This document shows positions 10,687-50,270 of a stretch of 64,000 nt of DNA, piece by piece (the stretch's first letter is position 1; every line of letters begins with the position of its first letter). Location of the stretch: contig CAWJZV010000008.1 of assembly GCA_963847445.1 (NCBI GenBank), positions 1 to 64,000 on the forward strand. The letters are read 5' to 3'. Source of the DNA: an uncultured delta proteobacterium. GTDB lineage: Bacteria > Desulfobacterota > Binatia > UBA9968. The notes under the pieces were generated by a model. It was not told where the DNA came from. It did no database searches and was given only the letters and a program-made list of their open reading frames with translations. The translations under genes and the position numbers were made by a program.

Positions 10687-11076
10687 CTAATCGGCAGACT
10701 TATCAGGCGGATATGGCTGGTCACCAGCGGCTTTCTGTGCCGGAGGCAGGGCGTTTCCCGACACACCGAAGTCAGCCTCGCCGGAAGAATTGTGAATAAC
10801 CGCCCCGTCGCCGGGATCAGGGCCGCGCTCTGCACCGGAACTACGCCCCATTCGACCCAAGGCATTAGGACGGCTGGAGTCGCCGTTACTGGCAAAAATG
10901 ATGAACGCGGCAATCAGGCCGGCTAGGCCGATGAGCGAGTAGACAATCCGGCTGATCGTGGAAGAGGGGCCGTCCATCAATGCCGCCAGCCCATCGATCT
11001 GTAGCAGTCCTACCAGACCCAAATTGATGGCACCGAGGATTATCAGGATGAAAGCAATTACGCGAATTGTTTTCAC
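10687..11076 (-). CDS. DUF378 family small membrane protein with low-complexity tail
   Basis: IILGAINLGLVGL and SRIVYSLIGLAGL match the DUF378 pattern; probable GTG start at 11076. Confidence 0.75.
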   Translation of the reverse strand: MKTIRVIAFILIILGAINLGLVGLLQIDGLAALMDGPSSTISRIVYSLIGLAGLIAAFIIFASNGDSSRPNALGRMGRSSGAERGPDPGDGAVIHNSSGEADFGVSGNALPPAQKAAGDQPYPPDKSAD

Positions 11077-11091
11077 AGTGGCAGTGGAATG

Positions 11092-11107
11092 AGCAACGAT
11101 TATGCCA
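11092..11107 (-). promoter_or_regulatory. Sigma54 -24/-12 promoter upstream of the DUF378 gene
   Basis: Minus strand reads TGGCATAATCGTTGCT (GG-N10-GC). Confidence 0.55.
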
Positions 11108-38225: not shown

Positions 38226-40821
38226 TCACGCGTGCGCTTCGGCCCAATTGGCGCCGCTGTGCACTTCCACGGCCAAGCCGCAGCGCAGGTCGGCGGCTTG
38301 AGTCATTTCTCTTTCGATCAATGCGCGCGCCTCACTGACGCTGCCCGCTGGCACTTCGAAAACCAGCTCGTCGTGAACCGTCAGCAGCATTTTGGCGATC
38401 TGCTGTTTGCGCAATGCGGCGTCGACGTTGATCATCGCTTTCTTGAGAATGTCGGCGGCGCTGCCCTGGATCGGCGCGTTGAGCGCCATGCGCTCGCCCA
38501 ATGCGCGCAGCCGAAAGTTTGACGACTGCAATTCCGGCAGATAGCGGCGCCGACCGAACAGGGTCGTGGTAAAGCCGTCGACTTTCGCTTTCTCCACCTG
38601 GGCGGCGAGAAATTCTTTCACTCTCGGAAACTGCGCGTAGTAGGTTTCGACGAAAGTGGCCGCTTCGTCCATTTCGACGCCGAGCCGCTGCGAGACGCCG
38701 TAGGTCGACATGCCGTAAGCGATGCCGTAGGAAAATTGCTTGACCTTGTTGCGCATCTCCGAAGTGACGTTGCTCAATCCGACGTCATAGACTTTCGCCG
38801 CGATGGTCGCGTGAAAGTCGTGACCCTGCGCGAATGCCTGGCAAAACGTCTCGTCTTCGGAAAGATGCGCGAGCACGCGCAGCTCGATCTGGGAATAATC
38901 CGCCGACAGCAATACCTGCCCCGGCGGCGCGACGAAAGCGCGGCGGATCTGCCGTCCGAGATCGCCGCGAATGGGTATGTTTTGCAAGTTGGGCGCGCTC
39001 GATGACAAGCGCCCGGTGGCCGCCGTGGTTTGCTCGTAGGTCGTATGGATGCGCCGGCTCTTCGGATCGATGAGTCCGAGGAGCATCTCGCTGAAGCCAT
39101 TTTTGAGCTTTGATACCTCGCGGTATTCGAGCAGTGAGGCGACGATCGGATGGCGACCGGCGAGCTTCTCCAACTCAGCCGCGTCCGTGGAGTAGCCGGT
39201 TTTGATTTTTCTGGTTTTCGGCAACGCTAGTTTGTCGAATAGAATGCGCTGCAGCTGCAGGTTGGAGTTGACGTTGAATTGTTCGCCGGCGAGCTGTTGA
39301 ATCGTCTGCTCTAGGGCTGGTCATCTTCTGGCCGAAGTCGGAATTCAGGTTATAGAGATAGTCGCGATCGACAAGAATTCCGGCGTGCTCCATGCGCGCC
39401 AGCACCGGGATCAGGGGAAACTCCAGGGTCGTGGCAAGCTCCCAGGCGCCTTGCGCGCGGAGTTTCTCCTCGACGACCGGCGCTACGGCCCGTACCGCCA
39501 CGGCCCTCAGACAAACACTCTGCTTGTCGTCGGTTGCAAAAGACAGGGTGGTTTGCTCACCCGCTTGCGGCTCGCTCTTCTCCCCATCAAGGCTGACGCC
39601 TAGATAACGGCTCACGGTATCGCGCAGCTCGTACCCTGACGAGGAACCGGGTTCGAGGAGATAGGCAGCGATCTTGGTATCGCAATTCAAGGCTTCGATT
39701 TCGACGCCGGCGTCGAGGGCGGAACGGAAAAGTCCTTTGGCGTCATGAGCGATTTTTTGCCGGTTAGGATCTTTGAAAGCGTCGGCAAGCCTGGGTATGG
39801 CATCGCTCAATGGCAAAATACGCGCTTCTCCGTCTGCATCACTCACGGCAAGCCAATCATCATTCCAAGCAAGCGCGAGCGTTTCCCCCGGACGTAGATC
39901 GCTCGCCGAAGTCAACTCCGAAGTCGAGCTAATCTTCAGCGCGGGCGACGCCGCGTCACCGTGAAACTTGAGCGCCTTGAGTCGCTCGTGCAGGCTGCGA
40001 AGCTCAAGCGAGTGAAAGAGATTGCGCACCGCTTCCTCGTCCCACGCTTCGAGGCGGAGTTTCGCCGGATCGAGATCGAGTCGCACGTCGTCGAGCAGAT
40101 GGCCCAGCTCTTTATTGATCCGCACCTGACCGGCGTGGTTCTTGACCGCTTCGCGGAGTTTCGGTGTCAGCTCGTCGGCATGGACGATGACCTGCTCGAT
40201 ATCGCCGTATTTATTGATGAGCTGAGCTGCGGTCTTGTCGCCCACGCCGGGCACTCCCGGTAAGTTGTCCGCGGCTTCACCCTTGAGCGCGACGAAATCG
40301 ATCCACTTCTCCGGTGTCACGCCGTAGCGCTCGACTACAGTCGGCGGATCGTAGCGGATCACGTCGGAAATGCCGCGCCGGGTCATGATGACGGCGACGC
40401 CGTCGCGAACCAGTTGAAGAATATCACGGTCGCCGGTGACGATAGTCACCTCGCAACCTTCTTCTCGCGCATGCTTGGTCAAGGTCGCCAGCAGGTCGTC
40501 GGCCTCATAGCCTTCCAGCTCGACCATGGGAATCCGCAAGCTGGCGAGCACTTCGCGAATCAGCGGCAGCTGCTGCTTAAACAAATCCGGGGTCGCCGCC
40601 CGCCCGGCCTTGTACTCTGCGTAGCGGTCGAGGCGAAATTGCGGCGCGCCCTTGTCGAAGCAAACGACTACCCCTTGCGGTCGCTCGTCGGCGAGAAGCT
40701 TGATCAGCATCGCCGTGAAGCCGTAGACGGCGTTGGTCACTTGCCCGGACGACGTGACGAGAGTATCGGGCAATGCGAAAAAGGCGCGATAGGCCAGCGA
40801 ATGGCCGTCGAGCAAGAGCAC
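38226..40821 (-). CDS. polA: DNA polymerase I, frameshifted near 39310; true start may extend to about 40903
   Basis: 5' nuclease motifs LLDGHSLAYRAF, EADD, TGDRD; polymerase motifs TGRLSS..PNLQN, ADYSQIELR, NAPIQG, VHDE; no recognisable 3'-5' exonuclease carboxylates. Confidence 0.93.
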
Positions 40822-41016: not shown

Positions 41017-41664
41017 TTAGTACAAGTTTCCTGCAAACACCCATCGGTCGAGATTATCGAAATAGGCGCGGCGTAAGACTAAGCTCATCGCCACGGCGCG
41101 GGCGGCTTTTGCTTGTTTCTCCGCGGTAGTTGCGTATTTGACTAGGATCTCAAACGGGTAGTTGCCATGTTGTTCTTCGTCTGCGTGGATTTTTTGATAG
41201 GGGGCGGTTATCCAGCTCGGTACGGTTCCCGCCTTCAGGCTTTTGGCGATAAGATAATCGGCCACGCCTTCGCCGGCCATTGGGAACGCGGCGATTCTTT
41301 CCACCGTGTCGGTTAGTCCTTCAAAAGCATTGAACATCGCCATCTGTGCCGGCAGCGGTTGGTAATCGTGGGGCGTGGCGCCTTTACTGCGCAGCGCTTC
41401 CTCGAGAAACCCAGCATGCTCGTACTCTTCGTGGGTCGCTTCGGCGAGGGTTTTCTTTACGTCCAGCTCGGGCGTGCTTTTCAGCCAGCCGCCGAAGATC
41501 TCGCCGGCGCGGATTTCGTTGAACAGCCGGCTCTGCATTACTTTGATACGCATGTCATCGTTGGTGAGCGGGATGAAGCTGTAGGCCGGCAGCTTCGCGT
41601 CTAGGTTCTGGCAGAAATCGGCAACCTGTTTTTCCAGCGATTTGGCGAATTCACGGCTATCCAT
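41017..41664 (-). CDS. Ferritin-like diiron-carboxylate protein
   Basis: NEIRAGE, EEYEH, GEG, DEEQH (paired ExxH motifs); AGGAG RBS. Confidence 0.7.
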   Translation of the reverse strand: MDSREFAKSLEKQVADFCQNLDAKLPAYSFIPLTNDDMRIKVMQSRLFNEIRAGEIFGGWLKSTPELDVKKTLAEATHEEYEHAGFLEEALRSKGATPHDYQPLPAQMAMFNAFEGLTDTVERIAAFPMAGEGVADYLIAKSLKAGTVPSWITAPYQKIHADEEQHGNYPFEILVKYATTAEKQAKAARAVAMSLVLRRAYFDNLDRWVFAGNLY

Positions 41665-41737
41665 GGGGCTCTCCTGTTTACCGGATCGACTTCCGGATCG
41701 GTTCCTGGCTATCAATTTGGTTTCGCCAGGTCAACGC

Positions 41738-42607: not shown

Positions 42608-42776
42608 AGTAAGTCTCAGTGTCTGAGACTTTCAGATAAGCCGAGGCGGGCGGGATTTGCAACCGATGCTCCGATCTGGTCGATGGGCATCGATCGTGTT
42701 GACGATGCTGCTTGCGGTGATGGCGCGTCTATCCTAAGATCGGCGGTCTTTAACACTATTCGGCAAAGGAGAATCT

Positions 42777-43214
42777 ATGGATCCAAAAGCGCAAGTCGTG
42801 CAATTAAAAACTCAACTGGTGAGCGAGGGCCATACCCGCTTCATGCTCGCCGAAACCGATTTGATGACGCTGCGAATTCACTGCTATGCCCCTGGCATCG
42901 GCGAGAATGCCCTGCACGCGCACACCAAGGAAGATCATATCTTTGTGGTCTTGGACGGCACGGCGCAATTCAACACCGAACGCGACGGCCAAACAGTGCT
43001 GACGGCGACCAAAAATCACGCGGTGGTGTTGCCGGCGGGCAGTTACTATCAGTTCTGCAATTCCGGCCAGACGCCGCTGGTCATGGCGCGCATCGGCGCC
43101 GGTCCGGACAAGGCCGACCAGCGGCTCAATCCCGACGGTTCAGCGGTCCCAGGGCGTGCCCATGAGCAAGGTGTGGCCAAACCCAAACTGATCGAAGGGG
43201 CATTCTTCGAGTAA
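42777..43214 (+). CDS. Cupin domain protein
   Basis: LHAHTKEDHIFVVLDG motif 1; VLPAGSYYQF motif 2. Confidence 0.8.
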   Translation: MDPKAQVVQLKTQLVSEGHTRFMLAETDLMTLRIHCYAPGIGENALHAHTKEDHIFVVLDGTAQFNTERDGQTVLTATKNHAVVLPAGSYYQFCNSGQTPLVMARIGAGPDKADQRLNPDGSAVPGRAHEQGVAKPKLIEGAFFE

Positions 43215-43245
43215 ATTCCGAATCCTTTTGGTTTTGGGAGGGGGA

Positions 43246-43308
43246 CCAACCCGCGCCGGTGGGGGCTGGCGCGGGTTGGCCGGGGAGGAGCTTCCCCCTA
43301 TGGGGAAG
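43246..43308. terminator. Two GC-rich hairpins between convergent genes
   Basis: ccaacccgcgcc pairs with ggcgcgggttgg (12 bp); cttcccc pairs with ggggaag. Confidence 0.45.
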
Positions 43309-43323
43309 TTCGCAGAGCCTAAA

Positions 43324-43533
43324 TTAAGCGATGTCGCGCATGCGCGAAAAGGTATCTTGCAGCTTGCGCAGTTCACTGTTGAGCCAGCGTTGGTGCAAGC
43401 GGTGTTTGCTCAGGTGTGGTTGCAGCAGCGATTCGGGATACATCTTGGCACCGCATTGTTCGCATTTAACCGCACGAAATTCTTTGCGTTCGAAAGCGAT
43501 GACTTTTGAGTTTGCCGCTGCTGCCGGTTCCAT
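43324..43533 (-). CDS. Small protein with a C2H2 zinc-finger motif
   Basis: CEQCGAKMYPESLLQPHLSKH fits C-x2-C-x12-H-x3-H; AGGAGG RBS; sigma54 motif upstream. Confidence 0.7.
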   Translation of the reverse strand: MEPAAAANSKVIAFERKEFRAVKCEQCGAKMYPESLLQPHLSKHRLHQRWLNSELRKLQDTFSRMRDIA

Positions 43534-43565
43534 CTCCACCTCCTGTCAAACTAAATAGAATCATA

Positions 43566-43581
43566 AGCAAGGCATATGCCA
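43566..43581 (-). promoter_or_regulatory. Sigma54 -24/-12 promoter of the C2H2 gene
   Basis: Minus strand reads TGGCATATGCCTTGCT. Confidence 0.65.
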
Positions 43582-43660
43582 CCTGTTCAATTGTAAATAG
43601 GCGCTGCAAGACCCCAACTTCTTTGAATTTTCGCGCGATGGGAAAACTGACGGGCACTGT

Positions 43661-43679
43661 TGACAACGAGCAGTTGTCA
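43661..43679. promoter_or_regulatory. Palindromic operator, candidate enhancer-binding-protein site
   Basis: TGACAAC-N5-GTTGTCA, about 80 bp upstream of the sigma54 motif. Confidence 0.45.
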
Positions 43680-43803
43680 GAGGCATGACGCGGTTGACAT
43701 AGCGTGCGTCAATTTGACAGATTGCGGTGCCGATGGGCAAAAGCTGCCAGCCGGATTGGCTGACGCAGCTGCCGGGGTGATTCTTACTGCTTAGTGAAAT
43801 TGT

Positions 43804-44093
43804 TTACGCGCCGAAGAAATTTACCGCGGTGGAGCGAAAAATATTGTCGCTTTCCTGGCGCGAAAATCCCGCGCGTGCCGTGAGCATGGAGATCATATTG
43901 GGCGATGTCCCATCGGGATAGGCTGGCCGTTTACGCGCAGCGGTTTGGCATGCGCCAATACAAAGGGCGCACGTGCCGGATAGTCGATGCGATAACGCTC
44001 ATCGGGCAGGGAAGCTCTTCGACGTTCTATGCACCGACGTCGCGCGGGAAAAAGCGTCGACGCGAATATTAAAAGATTTGCCAAAAGTGGCAT
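43804..44093 (-). pseudogene. Possible degraded 3' fragment of an amidohydrolase gene
   Basis: Across frames: VIAS/DYP, then PDGTSPNMISMLTARAGFSRQESDNIFRSTAVNFFGA*, resembling Amidohydro_2 C-termini; interrupted by stops and frameshifts. Confidence 0.3.
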
Positions 44094-44126
44094 CGCACGG
44101 GTTGTCGTTGACCTGGCAACGCAAGT

Positions 44127-45104
44127 TTAGCTCGGTGCGACCGCGCGGCGGCACGCAATGACGATGCGCTCTTGGTTCGGCAAAAACTGTTTTTCCAGCG
44201 TCGGTCCGGCCGGCACCGGTGCGAATGGGGCGGCGACCCGAACGATCGGATTGTCGAGGTAGTGGAAAGCCTCCTGCTGAACTCTGGCGACGATTTCGGC
44301 GCCGATGCCGCCATGTTCGACCGCTTCATGGGTGACGATCATGCGGCTGGTTTTCTTCACCGAGTTGGCGATGGTCTCGATATCGAGCGGCGAAATCGTC
44401 CGTGGGTCGATGACTTCCACCGAGATCCCTTCTGCTGCTAATTCTTTCGCTGCGGCCAGCGCCGGCGCTACCATGCTGGACAGCGCGACGATGGTGAGAT
44501 CTGTCCCTTCGCGCAGCAGCGCGGCTTTACCGATGGCGACGCTCTGTTCGTTCGCCGGCACTTCGCCCTTGCTCCAATAAAGACCGCGATGTTCGATGAA
44601 CACCACCGGATTGTCGTCGCGGATCGCCGATTTTAACAAACCTTTGGCATCGGCGGGATTGGCCGGCATAACGACTTTCAGTCCCGGCACATGGGCGAGC
44701 CAGGACTCCAGACTTTGCGAATGATGGGCGCCCATGGCGCCGCTGATGCCGCACTGGACGCGCACCGTCAGTGGAATTTTCAATTGCCCGCCCGACATGT
44801 AGTGCAGCTTGGCGGCGTGATTGACCAATTGATCCATCGCCAGGGTGATAAAATCGATGAACATGATCTCGATTACGGGGCGCAGGCCGGCGGTGGCGGT
44901 GCCGATGGCAAGCCCCATCACGGTGGCTTCGCTGATCGGCGTGTTGACGGTGCGGTTGACGCCGAAGGTTTCGGCCAAACCTTTGGTGACGCCGAAGGGA
45001 CCGCCGAGGGCGACATCTTCGCCGAAAATGTAGACCGCCGGATCGCGGCGCATCTCTTCTTCGAGTCCGGCGCGGATCGCTTCGAGATAGGTTTGTTCGG
45101 GCAT
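44127..45104 (-). CDS. 2-oxoacid/acetoin dehydrogenase E1 beta subunit
   Basis: FGEDV, TPISE, EIMFIDF, HHSQS, FIEH. Confidence 0.9.
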   Translation of the reverse strand: MPEQTYLEAIRAGLEEEMRRDPAVYIFGEDVALGGPFGVTKGLAETFGVNRTVNTPISEATVMGLAIGTATAGLRPVIEIMFIDFITLAMDQLVNHAAKLHYMSGGQLKIPLTVRVQCGISGAMGAHHSQSLESWLAHVPGLKVVMPANPADAKGLLKSAIRDDNPVVFIEHRGLYWSKGEVPANEQSVAIGKAALLREGTDLTIVALSSMVAPALAAAKELAAEGISVEVIDPRTISPLDIETIANSVKKTSRMIVTHEAVEHGGIGAEIVARVQQEAFHYLDNPIVRVAAPFAPVPAGPTLEKQFLPNQERIVIACRRAVAPS

Positions 45105-45159
45105 GGTTGGTTGTGGTTCCATCGGCGGGCGCGGCATGCTGCGCCCCTACATTAGGATC

Positions 45160-46137
45160 TTATGATGCCGTTGCGTACACTTGGCTATCGACTTCGATTT
45201 CTGCTGGCCACGGCGATGACAGAGAGAATGTCGCGGCTTTGTCGGCCAAGGCTTGGGCTTCGCTTTCCATCGCTGCCAGTTCTTTGTCGGTGAGCGCTTT
45301 CTGGCTTTTCAGTGCTCTGGCGACCCGGGCTATGGGATCTTTCTTCTGCCATTCGGCGAGCTGGGACAGCTCGCGGTACTTGGCCGGATCGCCTTCATAA
45401 TGGCCGCGCATGCGATGGGTCAGACATTCAACAAATATCGGGCCGTTGCCGGCGCGGCATTTGTCGACGGCTTTCGACATTACCGCGCGCACGGCAAACA
45501 GATCGTTGCCGTCGACGGTGTCGGCAGGAATTCCATAAGTCTTGGCATGCTGCGCCAGCCGCTCGATCTTGGTGTGCGCCGACAGCGGCGTGAACTCGGC
45601 GTAGCCGTTGTTTTCGCAGACAAAGATCACCGGCAGTTGCCAGAGGCTGGCGATGTTGAGCGACTCGTGAAACGGCCCGGATTGGCCGGCGCCGTCGCCG
45701 AAGAAGACGACCGCGAGTTGGCCTTTTTTTCTTTCTTTCGCCGCAAAGGCCGCGCCGAGGGCGAGCGGAATGGTGCCGCCGACCACGCCGGTGGCGGTGA
45801 TAAAGCCGCACTCTTTGGCGACGATATGCATGGAGCCGCCCTTGCCGCCGCAGTAACCGGTGGCGCGGCCGGCGATCTCGGCCATTAATTTATTTATGTC
45901 CGCGCCCTTGGCGATGGCGTGGCCGTGGGAGCGGTGGCCGCCATAGACCAAATCGTCATCGCGCAATAAGCTCAGCGCGCCGACGGCGACCGCTTCTTGG
46001 CCAATGCCCAAATGGAGCAAGCCGACGATCTGCCGTTCGGCGTAGAGCGCGGAGACTTTTTCTTCGAACGCCCTGATGAGCCACATGCGGCGCAGCAGCT
46101 CGATCACTTCCTTGGAGTTTGTTTGCTTAATGGCCAT
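45160..46137 (-). CDS. 2-oxoacid/acetoin dehydrogenase E1 alpha subunit
   Basis: GQEA, HRSHGH, GKGGSMH, FGDGA...ENN, HRMRGH. Confidence 0.9.
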   Translation of the reverse strand: MAIKQTNSKEVIELLRRMWLIRAFEEKVSALYAERQIVGLLHLGIGQEAVAVGALSLLRDDDLVYGGHRSHGHAIAKGADINKLMAEIAGRATGYCGGKGGSMHIVAKECGFITATGVVGGTIPLALGAAFAAKERKKGQLAVVFFGDGAGQSGPFHESLNIASLWQLPVIFVCENNGYAEFTPLSAHTKIERLAQHAKTYGIPADTVDGNDLFAVRAVMSKAVDKCRAGNGPIFVECLTHRMRGHYEGDPAKYRELSQLAEWQKKDPIARVARALKSQKALTDKELAAMESEAQALADKAATFSLSSPWPAEIEVDSQVYATAS

Positions 46138-46204
46138 CAATCAAAGCGAGCCGCTGGCTGCTATTCGGCAGGTCATCGCAGATTTCAAGAACGCGAAATA
46201 GTGT

Positions 46205-47176
46205 TTACACCAGCGCCGCGCGCACGGCGTCCATGATGCGCGCCTCGGATGGGCCGATATGGGCTTCGAGCCCAGGGCTGTAGGGCACCGGCACATCGAG
46301 GGTCGAGACCCGGCGGATGGCGGTCTTGAGCTTGTCGAAGCCGGTCTCGGCGATGCGCGCGGCGATCTCGGCGGCGACGCCGCAGCTCTGATGGGTCTCG
46401 TCGGCGATGACGACGCGATGAGTCTTCTCAACCGATGCGAGAATGGTCGCGAGATCGAACGGTACCAAGGTGCGCGGGTCGACGACTTCAATTTCGATGC
46501 CTTCCTTGGCGAGTTTCGCGGCGGCTTGGAGCGCGACCTGGACGGTGTAGGAAGTCGCGATCAACGTCACATCACCGCCGCTGCGTTTGATGTCGGCGAC
46601 GCCGAAAGGAATCGGTTTGTCGTTCTCAGGGACGTCGCCGCGGATGTCCAAGAGCCGGGTGTGATCGACGAAGATCGTTGGGTTGTCGCTGGCAACGGCG
46701 GTTTTCAATAATCCTTTGACATCGCGCGGCGACGACGGGATGACGATTTCCAACCCGGGAACGTTCCACAGCATCGCTTGCGGGCTGCCCGAATGCTGCG
46801 CCGCGCCGCCGCCACGCAGTCCGTGAAATAGATGGAACACCACCGGCACGCGGGTCTGGCCGCCGGACATCGAATAAGCATTGGCCGCTTCGTTGGCGAC
46901 TTGAGGCCAGGCTTCATAGATGAAACTGCCGGTGCTCAAATCGACGATGGGGCGGAGTCCTGCCATCGCCGCGCCGGTGGCGAGACCGCAGAATCCCAAC
47001 TCGGAGATCGGCGGCGCAAACATTCGCGCGCTGAATTTCTTTTGCAGGTTTTGAAAGACGTGACGGTGCGGGCTCAAGCTCAGGAAAGTGCCGTTGATCA
47101 GATGGACGCGTTCATCGCCGCTCATGATCTCGTCGAGGGCTTCGAATTTAGCTTCGTAGTAAGCAAGTTCTCTCAT
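46205..47176 (-). CDS. Divergent E1 beta subunit
   Basis: PISE, QHSGS, VVDPRTLVP; lacks the N-terminal GED motif. Confidence 0.85.
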   Translation of the reverse strand: MRELAYYEAKFEALDEIMSGDERVHLINGTFLSLSPHRHVFQNLQKKFSARMFAPPISELGFCGLATGAAMAGLRPIVDLSTGSFIYEAWPQVANEAANAYSMSGGQTRVPVVFHLFHGLRGGGAAQHSGSPQAMLWNVPGLEIVIPSSPRDVKGLLKTAVASDNPTIFVDHTRLLDIRGDVPENDKPIPFGVADIKRSGGDVTLIATSYTVQVALQAAAKLAKEGIEIEVVDPRTLVPFDLATILASVEKTHRVVIADETHQSCGVAAEIAARIAETGFDKLKTAIRRVSTLDVPVPYSPGLEAHIGPSEARIMDAVRAALV

Positions 47177-47185
47177 AATTAACTC

Positions 47186-48206
47186 TTAGGCGAAGAAGCC
47201 TCGCTCCGCCTCTTCCGGTTTTGGATAGGGGCTGTTGACGGCGAAGTCGACGGCGGCGGCGATCACGGATTTAACCTGGCTCTCAATGGCGGCGATCTCG
47301 TCGCGGGTCGCTTGATTCGCTTCGACCAACTCGCGGACATAAACCAATAATGGATCGGCGCTGCGGTACCACTCGCGAGAATTCTCCGGCACCTGACTTA
47401 CGTCCCACGCCAAGCGCTGTGTCCGTCGGCGTCGGTACGGTCGGCCAGTTGGTCGCGCTGCCGGGATAGCGCACCGTCTGCGCTTCGACGAATTGCGGTC
47501 CCTCGCCGCGGCGAATTTTCTCCACCGCTGCCGAGATTGTCGCATGCACCAAGCCGGCATCGATGCCATCGATTTGTTGCGCCGGAATTTTATACGCCTT
47601 CGGCAGATCGGTGAGCGGATAGGCCGCCATGGAGCTCGATTGCGCCGCGGCCACCGCGCGGCCGGTGCCGTATTTGCCGTTGTTCTCGCAGAGAAACAGC
47701 ACCGGCAATTTCAAAAGTGACGCGATATTGAACGCTTCCGGTGCGGCGCCTTCTTCAAGCGAGCCGTCGCCGAACAGGCAAACCGTGAGGCGGCCGTTCT
47801 TCTGCGCTTTGGACGCGTAGGCGGTGCCGGTCGACAGCGGAATGATGCCGGCGACGACCCCTGAGCTATGGAGAAATCCCAGCGACGGCGCGACTGAGTG
47901 AAACGACCCGCCTTTGCCTTTATTCAAGCCGTCGACGCGGCCCAAGATCTCCGCGAAGAGCTGCTTCGGCTCGACGCCGCGGGCGAGCAGATGGCCATGA
48001 TTTCTGTGCGTGGTGAAGAGATAGTCGTCGGCGCGCAGGCAAGCGAGCGCCGGCACACCGGTGGCCTCTTGGCCGACATAGAGATGGTAGTGGCCGCCGA
48101 ACACGCCTTGGTCGTGCAGCGCCACGAGATTCTCTTCAAAGTGGCGGATGACGAACATCCGCCGGCACAGCTCCAACAGATTTTCTCTCGGTAAATTCGG
48201 TAACAT
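47186..48206 (-). CDS. Divergent E1 alpha subunit, frameshifted near 47410
   Basis: GQEA, THRNHGH, GKGGSFH, FGDGS...ENN; VRYPGS in place of RxxGH. Confidence 0.85.
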
Positions 48207-49328: not shown

Positions 49329-49337
49329 TTGGCAAAT

Positions 49338-50270
49338 ATGAAAGTCCGCATCGGGATACAGCTCGGCCAGTGGCCGAGCCGCGACATCCGGCCCGAGGCG
49401 GTGCTCGATCTGGTCGACTACTTCGAAGCACTTGACGTCGACTCCATCTGGGTGAGCGATCGGCTGGTCTCGTCGGCCTTAACCCTCGAACCGATCACGT
49501 TTCTCTCCTACATCGCCGGCCGGCTGCGCAAGATGAAGTTCGGCACCAGCACACTGGTGCTGCCGACGCGCAATCCGGTGGTGCTCGCCAAGGAGCTCGC
49601 GACGTTGGATTTTCTCTCCCAAGGAAGATTGTTTCCAGCCATCGGTCTCGGCGGCGAGGAGTCGAAAGACTTGCAGGCGGTAGGGATAAATAAAAAAGAA
49701 CGCGCCGGGCGCACCGATGAGATGATCGTGCTCATGCGCCGCTTGTGGACTGAAGAGAACGTAACCTTCGCCGGCAAATACTTTTCAGTCGAAGACGCGA
49801 CCATCATGCCGCGGCCATGGCAAAAAAACGGCCCGCCGATCTGGATCGGCGGGCGCAGCGAAGCGGCGCTGAGAAGAACCGGCCGATTGGGTGACGGCTG
49901 GCTGGTCTCGTCGGTGTCTGCCGGCGAAGTGGCAACGAGGGATCAATTCGATTCGTCGCTACGCAGCCGATGCAGGCCGACAGGTCGAAGAGGATCACTA
50001 CGGCGTGCTGATACCTTTTTACTTCGCTGACAATGCTGAGAAAGCTTTCGAGATCGGCGGCACGCTCGATCCGTCCGCGCGCCGATATGCCGACGAGCGA
50101 ATTCACCGCCTTTGGCACACCCGACCAAGTCCGCGCCAGAGTTCAAGCCTACATCGCCGCCGGCGCGACCAAGTTCATCATGCGTCCCTGCGGCCCGTTC
50201 GATGGCTGGCGCGAGCAAGTGGACCATTTTGGCGCGGGAAGTTATCGTGCCGCTGCAGACAGCGGTCTAA
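49338..50270 (+). CDS. LLM-class flavin-dependent oxidoreductase, frameshifted
   Basis: IWVSDR, RNPVVLAKELATLD.LS.GR, PPIWIGG, GDGW. Confidence 0.85.

Follow-up and report, generated by a model that had tools for sequence, protein, structure and literature searches.

The stretch of DNA analyzed here, 64,000 nucleotides (nt) of contig CAWJZV010000008.1 from an uncultured delta proteobacterium assigned to the Binatia (the whole stretch being called the window below), carries on its minus strand an open reading frame (ORF) for a 69-residue protein with a single zinc-finger motif of the Cys2His2 (C2H2) type, and we refer to this ORF as the finger gene. A preliminary description of this DNA had pointed to the ORF and its C-x2-C-x12-H-x3-H pattern, to an AGGAGG ribosome-binding site (RBS), to a near-consensus sigma-54 motif and to a perfect TGACAAC-N5-GTTGTCA palindrome about 80 bp further upstream, and we found each of these in place, the sigma-54 motif being an exact match to TGGCAY-N5-TTGCW and the palindrome lying 79 nt from its TGGCA element (Table 1).

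Conservation of the finger gene and its family

Comparing the window with 13 genomic loci that carry the gene (soil metagenome-assembled genomes labelled Candidatus Binatia, 'uncultured delta proteobacterium', Thermodesulfobacteriota and a few others; single loci are given as L001, L006 and so on), we consider the finger gene to be a genuine coding gene with near certainty. The ratio of nonsynonymous to synonymous Nei-Gojobori proportions (pN/pS) between the window and its orthologous loci ranged from 0.24 to 0.53 (n = 11, leaving out L001, which has a two-codon deletion, and L010, whose match begins at residue 5), and we therefore take the gene to be under purifying selection, with synonymous sites near saturation in the same comparison (pS up to 0.88). 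The start codon is likewise conserved, as is the RBS, the GGAG core of which aligned in 14/14 upstream regions. An in-frame GTG at 43539 would make a product of 71 residues possible, and the homologues begin at the ATG.

The family to which the protein belongs is uncharacterized and found mainly in Binatia-type soil bacteria. A word-indexed search confirmed 22 of 22 candidates as close homologues (63–96% identity), 19 of them exactly 69 residues long, while an exhaustive phmmer search of 1.84 billion representative proteins gave 45 matches at E ≤ 1e-3. Fourteen of those 45 were dropped before alignment (6 long or repetitive, 4 ligand-deficient, 3 fragments [P0030, P0062, P0067] and 1 C-terminally divergent sequence [P0045]), and the alignment used throughout holds 38 sequences, namely the window protein, 7 close homologues and 30 distant representatives, reaching down to 29% identity. 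Searching with a profile of these 38 members, we recovered 318 clusters at E ≤ 1e-3 out of 943 candidates, which makes for a sizeable unnamed bacterial family that keeps the eukaryotic C2H2 spacing. Its more remote members include a subfamily of 66-residue proteins, such as P0043, P0096 and P0107. Publicly, members go by 'hypothetical protein', 'ribosomal protein S27AE', 'uncharacterized OB-fold protein' and 'C4-type Zn-finger protein', among which the S27AE and OB-fold names are wrong for family members, and Atlas look-alikes of the finger protein were unnamed Binatota clusters only. Literature searches returned no publication on this Binatia finger family, the related work being on Ros/MucR, haloarchaeal C(P)XCG micro-proteins, AFV1p06 and eukaryotic examples.

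Some matches of the family were set aside. Pfam GP17 'superinfection exclusion' was matched by 6 of the 38 members and PHROGs by at most 2, all below threshold, and we rejected both. A fusion search gave a single match, P0068, a 554-residue RecC-like protein (PF04257) on one 2.7-kb metagenome contig. At its end stands only the C-terminal half of the finger family, lacking the Cys pair, and we judged the sequence to be a chimera or deletion product and uninformative.

Zinc ligands and predicted fold

The finger motif of the window protein reads C24-E-Q-C27-GAK-M31-YPESL-L37-QP-H40-LSK-H44. Across the six frames of the window its C-x2-C-x12-H-x3-H pattern has a single match, compared with a mean of 0.08 in 100 mononucleotide shuffles (at least one match in 7 of the 100), and the fuller finger pattern with its hydrophobic positions occurred in none of them. 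All 38 aligned sequences keep C24, C27, P33, H40 and H44 without change, a statement valid for the kept rows only because four of the dropped matches lack ligands; judged by alignment, the zinc ligands are thus conserved in the great majority of members, not in all. A further five positions (A21, G28, K30, L58, R66) are at least 90% conserved. Core position 31 is hydrophobic and never aromatic (M in 21 sequences, I in 13, V in 3, L in 1), position 32 is Y, F or W in 38/38, and position 37 is L in 34/38.

Modelled by AlphaFold2 with the 38-sequence alignment (mean predicted local distance difference test score, pLDDT, 83.9), the protein shows strands (residues 11-14 and 17-20), short bridges (22-23, 30-31) and one long helix that spans 34-68. 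The predicted architecture is an N-terminal beta-hairpin, a beta-beta-alpha finger and an amphipathic helix of about 35 residues that continues the finger helix. Local Foldseek comparison of the model with the PDB placed it on solved C2H2 fingers at 0.7–1.2 Å over 23–28 columns (25–38% identity), most of these being classical fingers (ZBTB20, SALL3/4, ZNF692, 1MEY, IKZF2, BCL11A and WRNIP1-UBZ among the matches). Searched against PDB sequences, the family profile ranked 1MEY first (E = 0.0017) and HKR3 next (E = 0.0029), and the majority of the 37 matches listed were C2H2 fingers. The phmmer search also brought in three tandem C2H2 arrays (P0042, P0049, P0061) and, as further long multi-stretch matches, P0026 and P0041. 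Full-length look-alikes (the MqsA N-domain and ZifS) were rejected at a root-mean-square deviation of 9–14 Å. We conclude that the spacing and, as modelled, the predicted fold are of the classical type, and that the protein likely forms a zinc-bound beta-beta-alpha finger.

The best-conserved part of the protein lies beyond the finger, in the C-terminal helix (ELRKLQDTFSRMRDIA in the window protein), the last 16 residues of which follow E54-L-K/R-K-L58-Q-x-x-F/M62-x-R64-M65-R66 across the whole family. Hydrophobic residues at 3-4 spacing (L51, L55, L58, F62, M65) form a stripe along this tail that is exposed on a free-standing helix in the monomer model, and the model therefore suggests self-association or partner binding; a homodimer prediction from two copies with a wide alignment scored 0.00 against a mark of 0.42 and carries no weight either way. 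Positions 30, 56, 57, 64 and 66 keep a basic residue, and the net charge of the core, +5 in the window protein, is positive in 36 of 38 members (range -2 to +10). The preliminary description had seen a basic helix after the finger, and this stands for the window protein (core +5, HRLHQRW past the finger) and for close relatives (RHRRRQRW), while it does not extend to the wider family, where the feature is not conserved.

A conserved sigma-54-type promoter with upstream sites

For the promoter comparison, we aligned with MAFFT the 230-330 nt 5' of the start codon from the window and the 13 loci. Apart from L001, whose TTGCG deviates in the last base only, every locus carries the strict sigma-54 pattern (12 of 13), as does the window, and both TGGCA and TTGC are invariant in 14/14 regions while the neighbouring intergenic columns have diverged. 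The motif begins about 45–60 nt ahead of the start codon and, by the usual spacing, would place the transcription start near 43555. Exactly 2 matches to TGGCAY-N5-TTGCW occur in the 64 kb, against a dinucleotide-shuffle mean of 0.19 (2 of 100 shuffles reach 2), and the fetched DNA of 12 of the 13 loci contains no further promoter-pattern match; the exception, L006, has a second one (TGGCAT-N5-CTGCG) just downstream of its activator gene (see below).

Upstream of this core lies a cluster of TGTCA/TGACA half-sites. At least 3 of them stand 50–150 nt upstream of TGGCA in 13 of the 14 regions (4 in the window, none in L012), about 22 times the background density of these loci, which is 0.13 per 100 nt. 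Within the cluster, the perfect dyad of the window is in itself unremarkable because shuffled sequence gives a mean of 1.5 matches at up to 3 mismatches, compared with 2 in the window (one of them exact); what is notable is its conservation, with an exact TGACA-N8-10-TGTCA dyad in the window and 6 of 13 loci and variants at one or two bases in most others. Between these sites and the promoter, an A-rich block has partly conserved A-rich columns, and judged by the IHF consensus it may be a DNA-bending (IHF-like) site.

Since the core is kept in 14/14 regions and the half-site cluster in 13/14, enhancer-dependent sigma-54 control is strongly backed, and we hold it very probable that the finger gene depends on sigma-54 and an activator; as far as alignment can tell, this is a standard enhancer-dependent promoter architecture that has been preserved by selection. 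At the other end of the gene, the pair of GC-rich hairpins ahead of the convergent cupin gene was matched in stability by 0 of 200 shuffles, and no U-run follows the hairpins; no canonical terminator was found between the two genes, and the hairpins probably end transcription.

With these results the preliminary description held up in its view that the gene is real (homologues, purifying selection, ligands invariant in the 38 aligned) and under enhancer control (-24/-12 core and upstream cluster, as read from sequence). Of the checks it had proposed, the one on conservation of homologues, ligands and promoter came out in its favour (45 phmmer matches, invariant ligands in the aligned sequences with four dropped matches ligand-deficient, promoter core in 14/14), and in structure prediction the model shows a beta-beta-alpha finger. 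Its expectation that gene callers would tend to miss the gene was mistaken, given that the gene is predicted in public sets (22 close clusters, 318 by profile), where it is unnamed or misnamed.

The other exact match to the pattern in the window (TGGCATAATCGTTGCT) closely precedes a small hydrophobic ORF (VKTIRVIAFILIILGAINLGLVG...) with its start near 11066, and from its sequence it is probably a second sigma-54 promoter.

Table 1. Coordinates of the finger gene, its putative control elements and other features of the window.
Feature	Coordinates	Strand	Detail
69-residue single C2H2 zinc-finger coding sequence	43327..43533	minus	ATG 43533, last codon 43327-43329, stop 43324-43326
Shine-Dalgarno AGGAGG	43539..43544	minus	5 nt 5' of the ATG
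Putative sigma-54 -24/-12 promoter TGGCAT-ATGCC-TTGCT	43566..43581	minus	TGGCATATGCCTTGCT; exact match to TGGCAY-N5-TTGCW
A-rich block	43615..43632	minus	GAAAATTCAAAGAAGTTG; between upstream sites and promoter
Perfect dyad TGACAAC-N5-GTTGTCA	43661..43679	minus	within the half-site cluster, 79 nt upstream of TGGCA
Putative activator-site cluster, 4 TGTCA/TGACA half-sites	43661..43719	minus	43719-43715, 43699-43695, 43679-43675, 43665-43661
Two GC-rich hairpins	43246..43312	minus	between finger gene and convergent cupin gene; -44.7 kcal/mol, z = -4.3
Cupin gene	42777..43214	plus	145 residues
Cupin-EamA divergent intergenic region	42608..42776		TTGCAA-17-TTATCT towards EamA; TTGCGG-17-TAAGAT towards cupin
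Amidohydrolase relic	43810..44015	minus	two segments abutting at 43920
Two tandem E1 alpha/beta pairs	44127..48206	minus	one E1 alpha gene at 47283..48206
Gene for 232-residue protein, after EamA	41017..41715	minus	
DNA polymerase I, split	38226..40821	minus	exonuclease ORF 39175-40821, polymerase ORF 38226-39224
Luciferase-like gene	49329..50030		
Second exact TGGCAY-N5-TTGCW match	11092..11107	minus	TGGCATAATCGTTGCT

Gene neighbourhood and candidate activator

The finger gene sits in a recurring gene order, in which the alpha and beta genes of a thiamine pyrophosphate (TPP)-dependent E1 (at times two pairs) are followed by an optional solute-binding protein, by an Amidohydro_2 or aldo-keto reductase gene, by the finger gene, and then by a convergent 145-residue cupin and an EamA transporter. 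In 10 of 13 loci E1 alpha/beta genes precede the finger gene, the remaining 3 contigs ending within 900 nt upstream, and in 6 of 13 its immediate upstream neighbour is Amidohydro_2. Ten loci have the cupin and 11 the EamA transporter, with the cupin missing from L012 although the contig goes on.

Directly after the EamA gene, and so two genes from the finger gene, L006 and L012 encode an enhancer-binding protein (647 residues in L006; 599 residues, with a PAS domain, in L012), which we identified by GAFTGA and Walker motifs together with Pfam Sigma54_activat. These two orthologues share 68% identity over about 550 residues, and NCBIfam recognizes them in generic terms, below every equivalog cut-off.

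Several neighbours in the window have features of their own. Upstream of the finger gene, an amidohydrolase is reduced to a relic, with alignment to the L002 protein confined to its residues 31-62 and 308-344, the two segments abutting in a way that indicates an internal deletion of about 245 codons, and because of this Amidohydro_2 relic the 590-nt 'intergenic' stretch is mostly a dead gene. Further upstream, the E1 region of the window is doubled, as it also is in L001, L008 and L012, and we recognized no E2 or E3 gene among the ORFs scanned. One of its E1 alpha genes and a luciferase-like gene beyond it each cover only part of their Pfam model (Table 1). The cupin, which has no NCBIfam name, is 83–98% identical over its first 60 residues to those of L001-L004 and L006-L011, compared with 55–83% for the finger protein. 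In 11 sequences of the divergent region between the cupin and EamA genes, two conserved blocks of the sigma-70 type are seen, one towards each gene.

After EamA follows a gene for a 232-residue protein without a Pfam or NCBIfam match, which, going by EEYEH and DEEQH motifs noticed by eye, may be ferritin-like with a di-iron site; in L001 (7813-8508, 232 residues), L004 (215 residues) and L010 (7815-8495, 227 residues) this place is taken by an unnamed ORF, matched by size and position. The DNA polymerase I gene of the window is split into overlapping exonuclease and polymerase ORFs, compared with a single 892-residue ORF in L001, and this split is a frameshift, whether real or an assembly error.

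Interpretation and alternative explanations

The explanation we favour, and put forward tentatively as a whole, is that of a small regulator switched by sigma-54, with a structural finger, an associating tail and basic residues that bind nucleic acid. Because it has its own sigma-54 promoter, the finger gene would be expected to stay silent until activated. An enhancer-binding ATPase seated on the TGTCA/TGACA cluster some 80–140 nt upstream would then remodel the closed complex and allow transcription, and the likely activator would be an orthologue of the PAS-type activator found two genes downstream in L006 and L012, in this case encoded outside the window. The 69-residue protein may thereby serve as the small output regulator of a sigma-54 circuit, in which the zinc finger would be a structural module, the tail stripe would mediate self-association or partner binding, and K30, K/R56, K57, R64 and R66 would bind nucleic acid, with the flanking syntenic catabolic and transport genes as its likely targets. 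We give a little less than even weight to the conjecture that the finger protein works as an oligomer that binds nucleic acid; we infer that nucleic-acid binding is its most likely action and that a purely protein-binding role is nearly as likely.

A number of observations weigh against this explanation. Classical fingers read DNA bases via helix positions -1, +2, +3 and +6, and with H40 as position +7 these correspond in the family to P33 (38/38), a variable residue, L36 (31/38) and P/A39 (24/38); the polar or basic base-contacting residues of the DNA-binding C2H2 subclass are not found there, and by its sequence the finger does not look like a base-reading one. The basic stretch past H44 is replaced by an acidic or neutral one (DRHELKDMYL) in a large subfamily. 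Among the dropped matches, four small proteins are without the full ligand set, with the first Cys missing in P0035, the second Cys changed to Ser in P0048, the second His changed to Arg in P0046 and all four ligands lost in P0038. The finger-like fold is itself a prediction, made by a network trained on such fingers, and Foldseek gave no match at E ≤ 0.001 in PDB or in the predicted viral structures of BFVD, the best E in the PDB (1.9) being what a module of about 25 residues leads one to expect. No model of Pfam or NCBIfam reaches threshold with the window protein, which has no zf-C2H2 match at E ≤ 10, and over the 38 members Pfam gave sub-threshold matches only (zf_UBZ in 11, zf-C2H2 in 4 with a best E of 0.0054), so that by score the protein does not belong to the curated zf-C2H2 family. 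As for the proposed circuit, neither an activator gene nor an rpoN signature is present in the 64-kb window, only 2 of the 13 loci have an activator as a neighbour, and footprinting of the cupin-EamA intergenic region revealed no further conserved dyad; because the conserved blocks there read as sigma-70-type promoters, there is no obvious operator for the finger protein.

The best-surviving alternative, which we regard as possible if on the unlikely side, is that the protein is a protein-binding modulator whose finger and tail dock, in a UBZ-like manner, on the sigma-54 activator (as feedback), on RNA polymerase, on the cupin or on E1. Proline, a variable residue, leucine and Pro/Ala at the canonical DNA-reading positions would fit such a role, as would the amphipathic tail, best conserved of all segments and bearing a hydrophobic stripe of the a/d type, and a basic linker that is not conserved across the family. 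The same can be said of zf_UBZ being the most frequent sub-threshold Pfam match, with the WRNIP1 UBZ among the local fold matches, and of the strong identity of the convergent cupin at 10 loci. Against it stand the absence of the cupin from L012 despite a continuing contig, a core that is net positive in 36 of 38 members, and the conserved K30. Lysine at the position equivalent to K30 (CGK) is common in classical fingers.

Unlikely, in our estimate, is the further proposal that the Binatia keep a stand-alone, true eukaryote-type beta-beta-alpha finger with a coiled-coil-like tail as the dedicated output of a sigma-54 switch, one that docks on protein or RNA and does not read bases, for example by feeding back on the activator or on the sigma-54 holoenzyme. 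Were it true, these proteins would form a new class of small modulators of bacterial transcription and would add bacterial evidence to the debate over the origin of classical C2H2 fingers.

We find it improbable that, in place of a regulatory role, the protein serves the catabolic enzymes encoded nearby (cupin, amidohydrolase and TPP-dependent E1 alpha/beta) as an accessory or structural subunit. The tight synteny with E1 alpha/beta, cupin and EamA (10, 10 and 11 of the 13 loci) would be explained by such a role, but the finger gene has its own specialized promoter, with no other pattern match in 12 of 13 loci, and the extra match in L006 lies downstream of the activator gene and not ahead of an enzyme gene. 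The cupin and EamA genes carry conserved sigma-70-type blocks instead, and in the window the finger gene is intact while the adjacent amidohydrolase is a relic.

Very improbable, too, is that the working promoter is a sigma-70 one, TGAACA-18-TATGAT (43589-43560), or that the gene is read through from the upstream operon. This sigma-70-like sequence does match at 9 of 12 positions and overlaps the sigma-54 site, yet shuffling leads one to expect 0.5 such matches per region, the invariant columns of the 14-sequence alignment are TGGCA and TTGC and not the sigma-70 hexamers, and the half-site cluster stands at a distance typical of activator sites. Finally, that the ORF is a chance frame over a conserved non-coding element, for which only the small size and lack of a family model speak, is scarcely credible in view of a 69-residue length in 19 of 22 close homologues, the pN/pS values with synonymous sites near saturation, the conserved RBS and start codon, and the lack of any Rfam match within 43150-44200.

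For the explanation we favour, the sigma-54-switched regulator, the locus offers a clean system of one promoter, one upstream cluster, one candidate activator and one 69-residue product, and because it is so simple, the behaviour of a single finger with a helix in a bacterium is easy to test here.

Comparison with known systems

Among known modules, the finger is closest to the classical TFIIIA/Krüppel C2H2 type, as in the designed consensus 1MEY, with which it shares C-x2-C-x12-H-x3-H, the hydrophobic core positions and CGxK after the second Cys; the predicted beta-beta-alpha unit superposes at about 1 Å, and 1MEY is the top profile match among solved structures. The Binatia protein differs in being a single finger without a tandem array or TGEKP-type linker, in having Met or Ile where Phe is usual, in a helix that runs about 25 residues further, and in an extra N-terminal hairpin. 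The family is, moreover, bacterial, below the Pfam threshold, and has Pro, variable, Leu and Pro/Ala at its base-reading positions.

Ros/MucR of the Alphaproteobacteria are likewise bacterial and have a single Cys2His2 site. As described in excerpts of the source, 9 residues separate Cys from His in Ros, its beta-beta-beta-alpha-alpha domain comprises 58 residues of a protein of about 142, and the basic flanks of its finger help DNA binding (PMC9779718). With a 12-residue spacer in a 69-residue protein, the Binatia finger differs from this, and the preliminary description was right to call its spacing eukaryotic in type and unlike that of Ros (12 versus 9 residues; excerpts of PMC9779718). No Ros/MucR model was among the listed Pfam matches of the window protein or the 38 members.

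AFV1p06, from an archaeal virus, is a small single-finger protein with extensions that binds zinc and DNA, in which Glu replaces the fourth ligand, His, and for which, in the excerpted text, its authors found no bacterial homologue; the same excerpts state that C2H2 fingers of classical spacing are practically absent from bacteria (PMC3541406). The Binatia protein resembles it as a small protein of the prokaryote world with one classical-type finger, and differs in that AFV1p06 is archaeal/viral; searches of PDB and BFVD with the finger family gave no sequence or fold match to AFV1p06.

UBZ domains also consist of a single beta-beta-alpha finger of the C2H2 type and bind protein, and they supply the commonest sub-threshold Pfam match (11/38) and, in the WRNIP1 UBZ, a local fold match of 0.7 Å over 23 columns. 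All UBZ matches are, however, below threshold, and the long conserved tail is not found in UBZ. To our knowledge, bacteria have no ubiquitin system. DksA/TraR proteins carry a four-Cys site (C-x2-C-x17-C-x2-C) after a coiled coil; membership in that family was rejected on the Cys2His2 site of the Binatia protein, the long helix that comes after its finger, and the lack of any such family among the Pfam and NCBIfam matches.

Textbook enhancer-dependent sigma-54 promoters, such as glnAp2 with NtrC, have upstream activator sites. The promoter of the finger gene resembles them in its TGGCAY-N5-TTGCW core, in the dyad sites about 80–140 nt upstream, in the A-rich block between the two and in the gene for an AAA+ activator at 2 of 13 loci, and differs from them in that the TGTCA/TGACA half-sites matched no named activator and that the sole gene driven would be one for a 69-residue protein. 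Seen against these systems, the Binatia family offers no new principle: both the module, here in a bacterial variant, and its type of control are already known.

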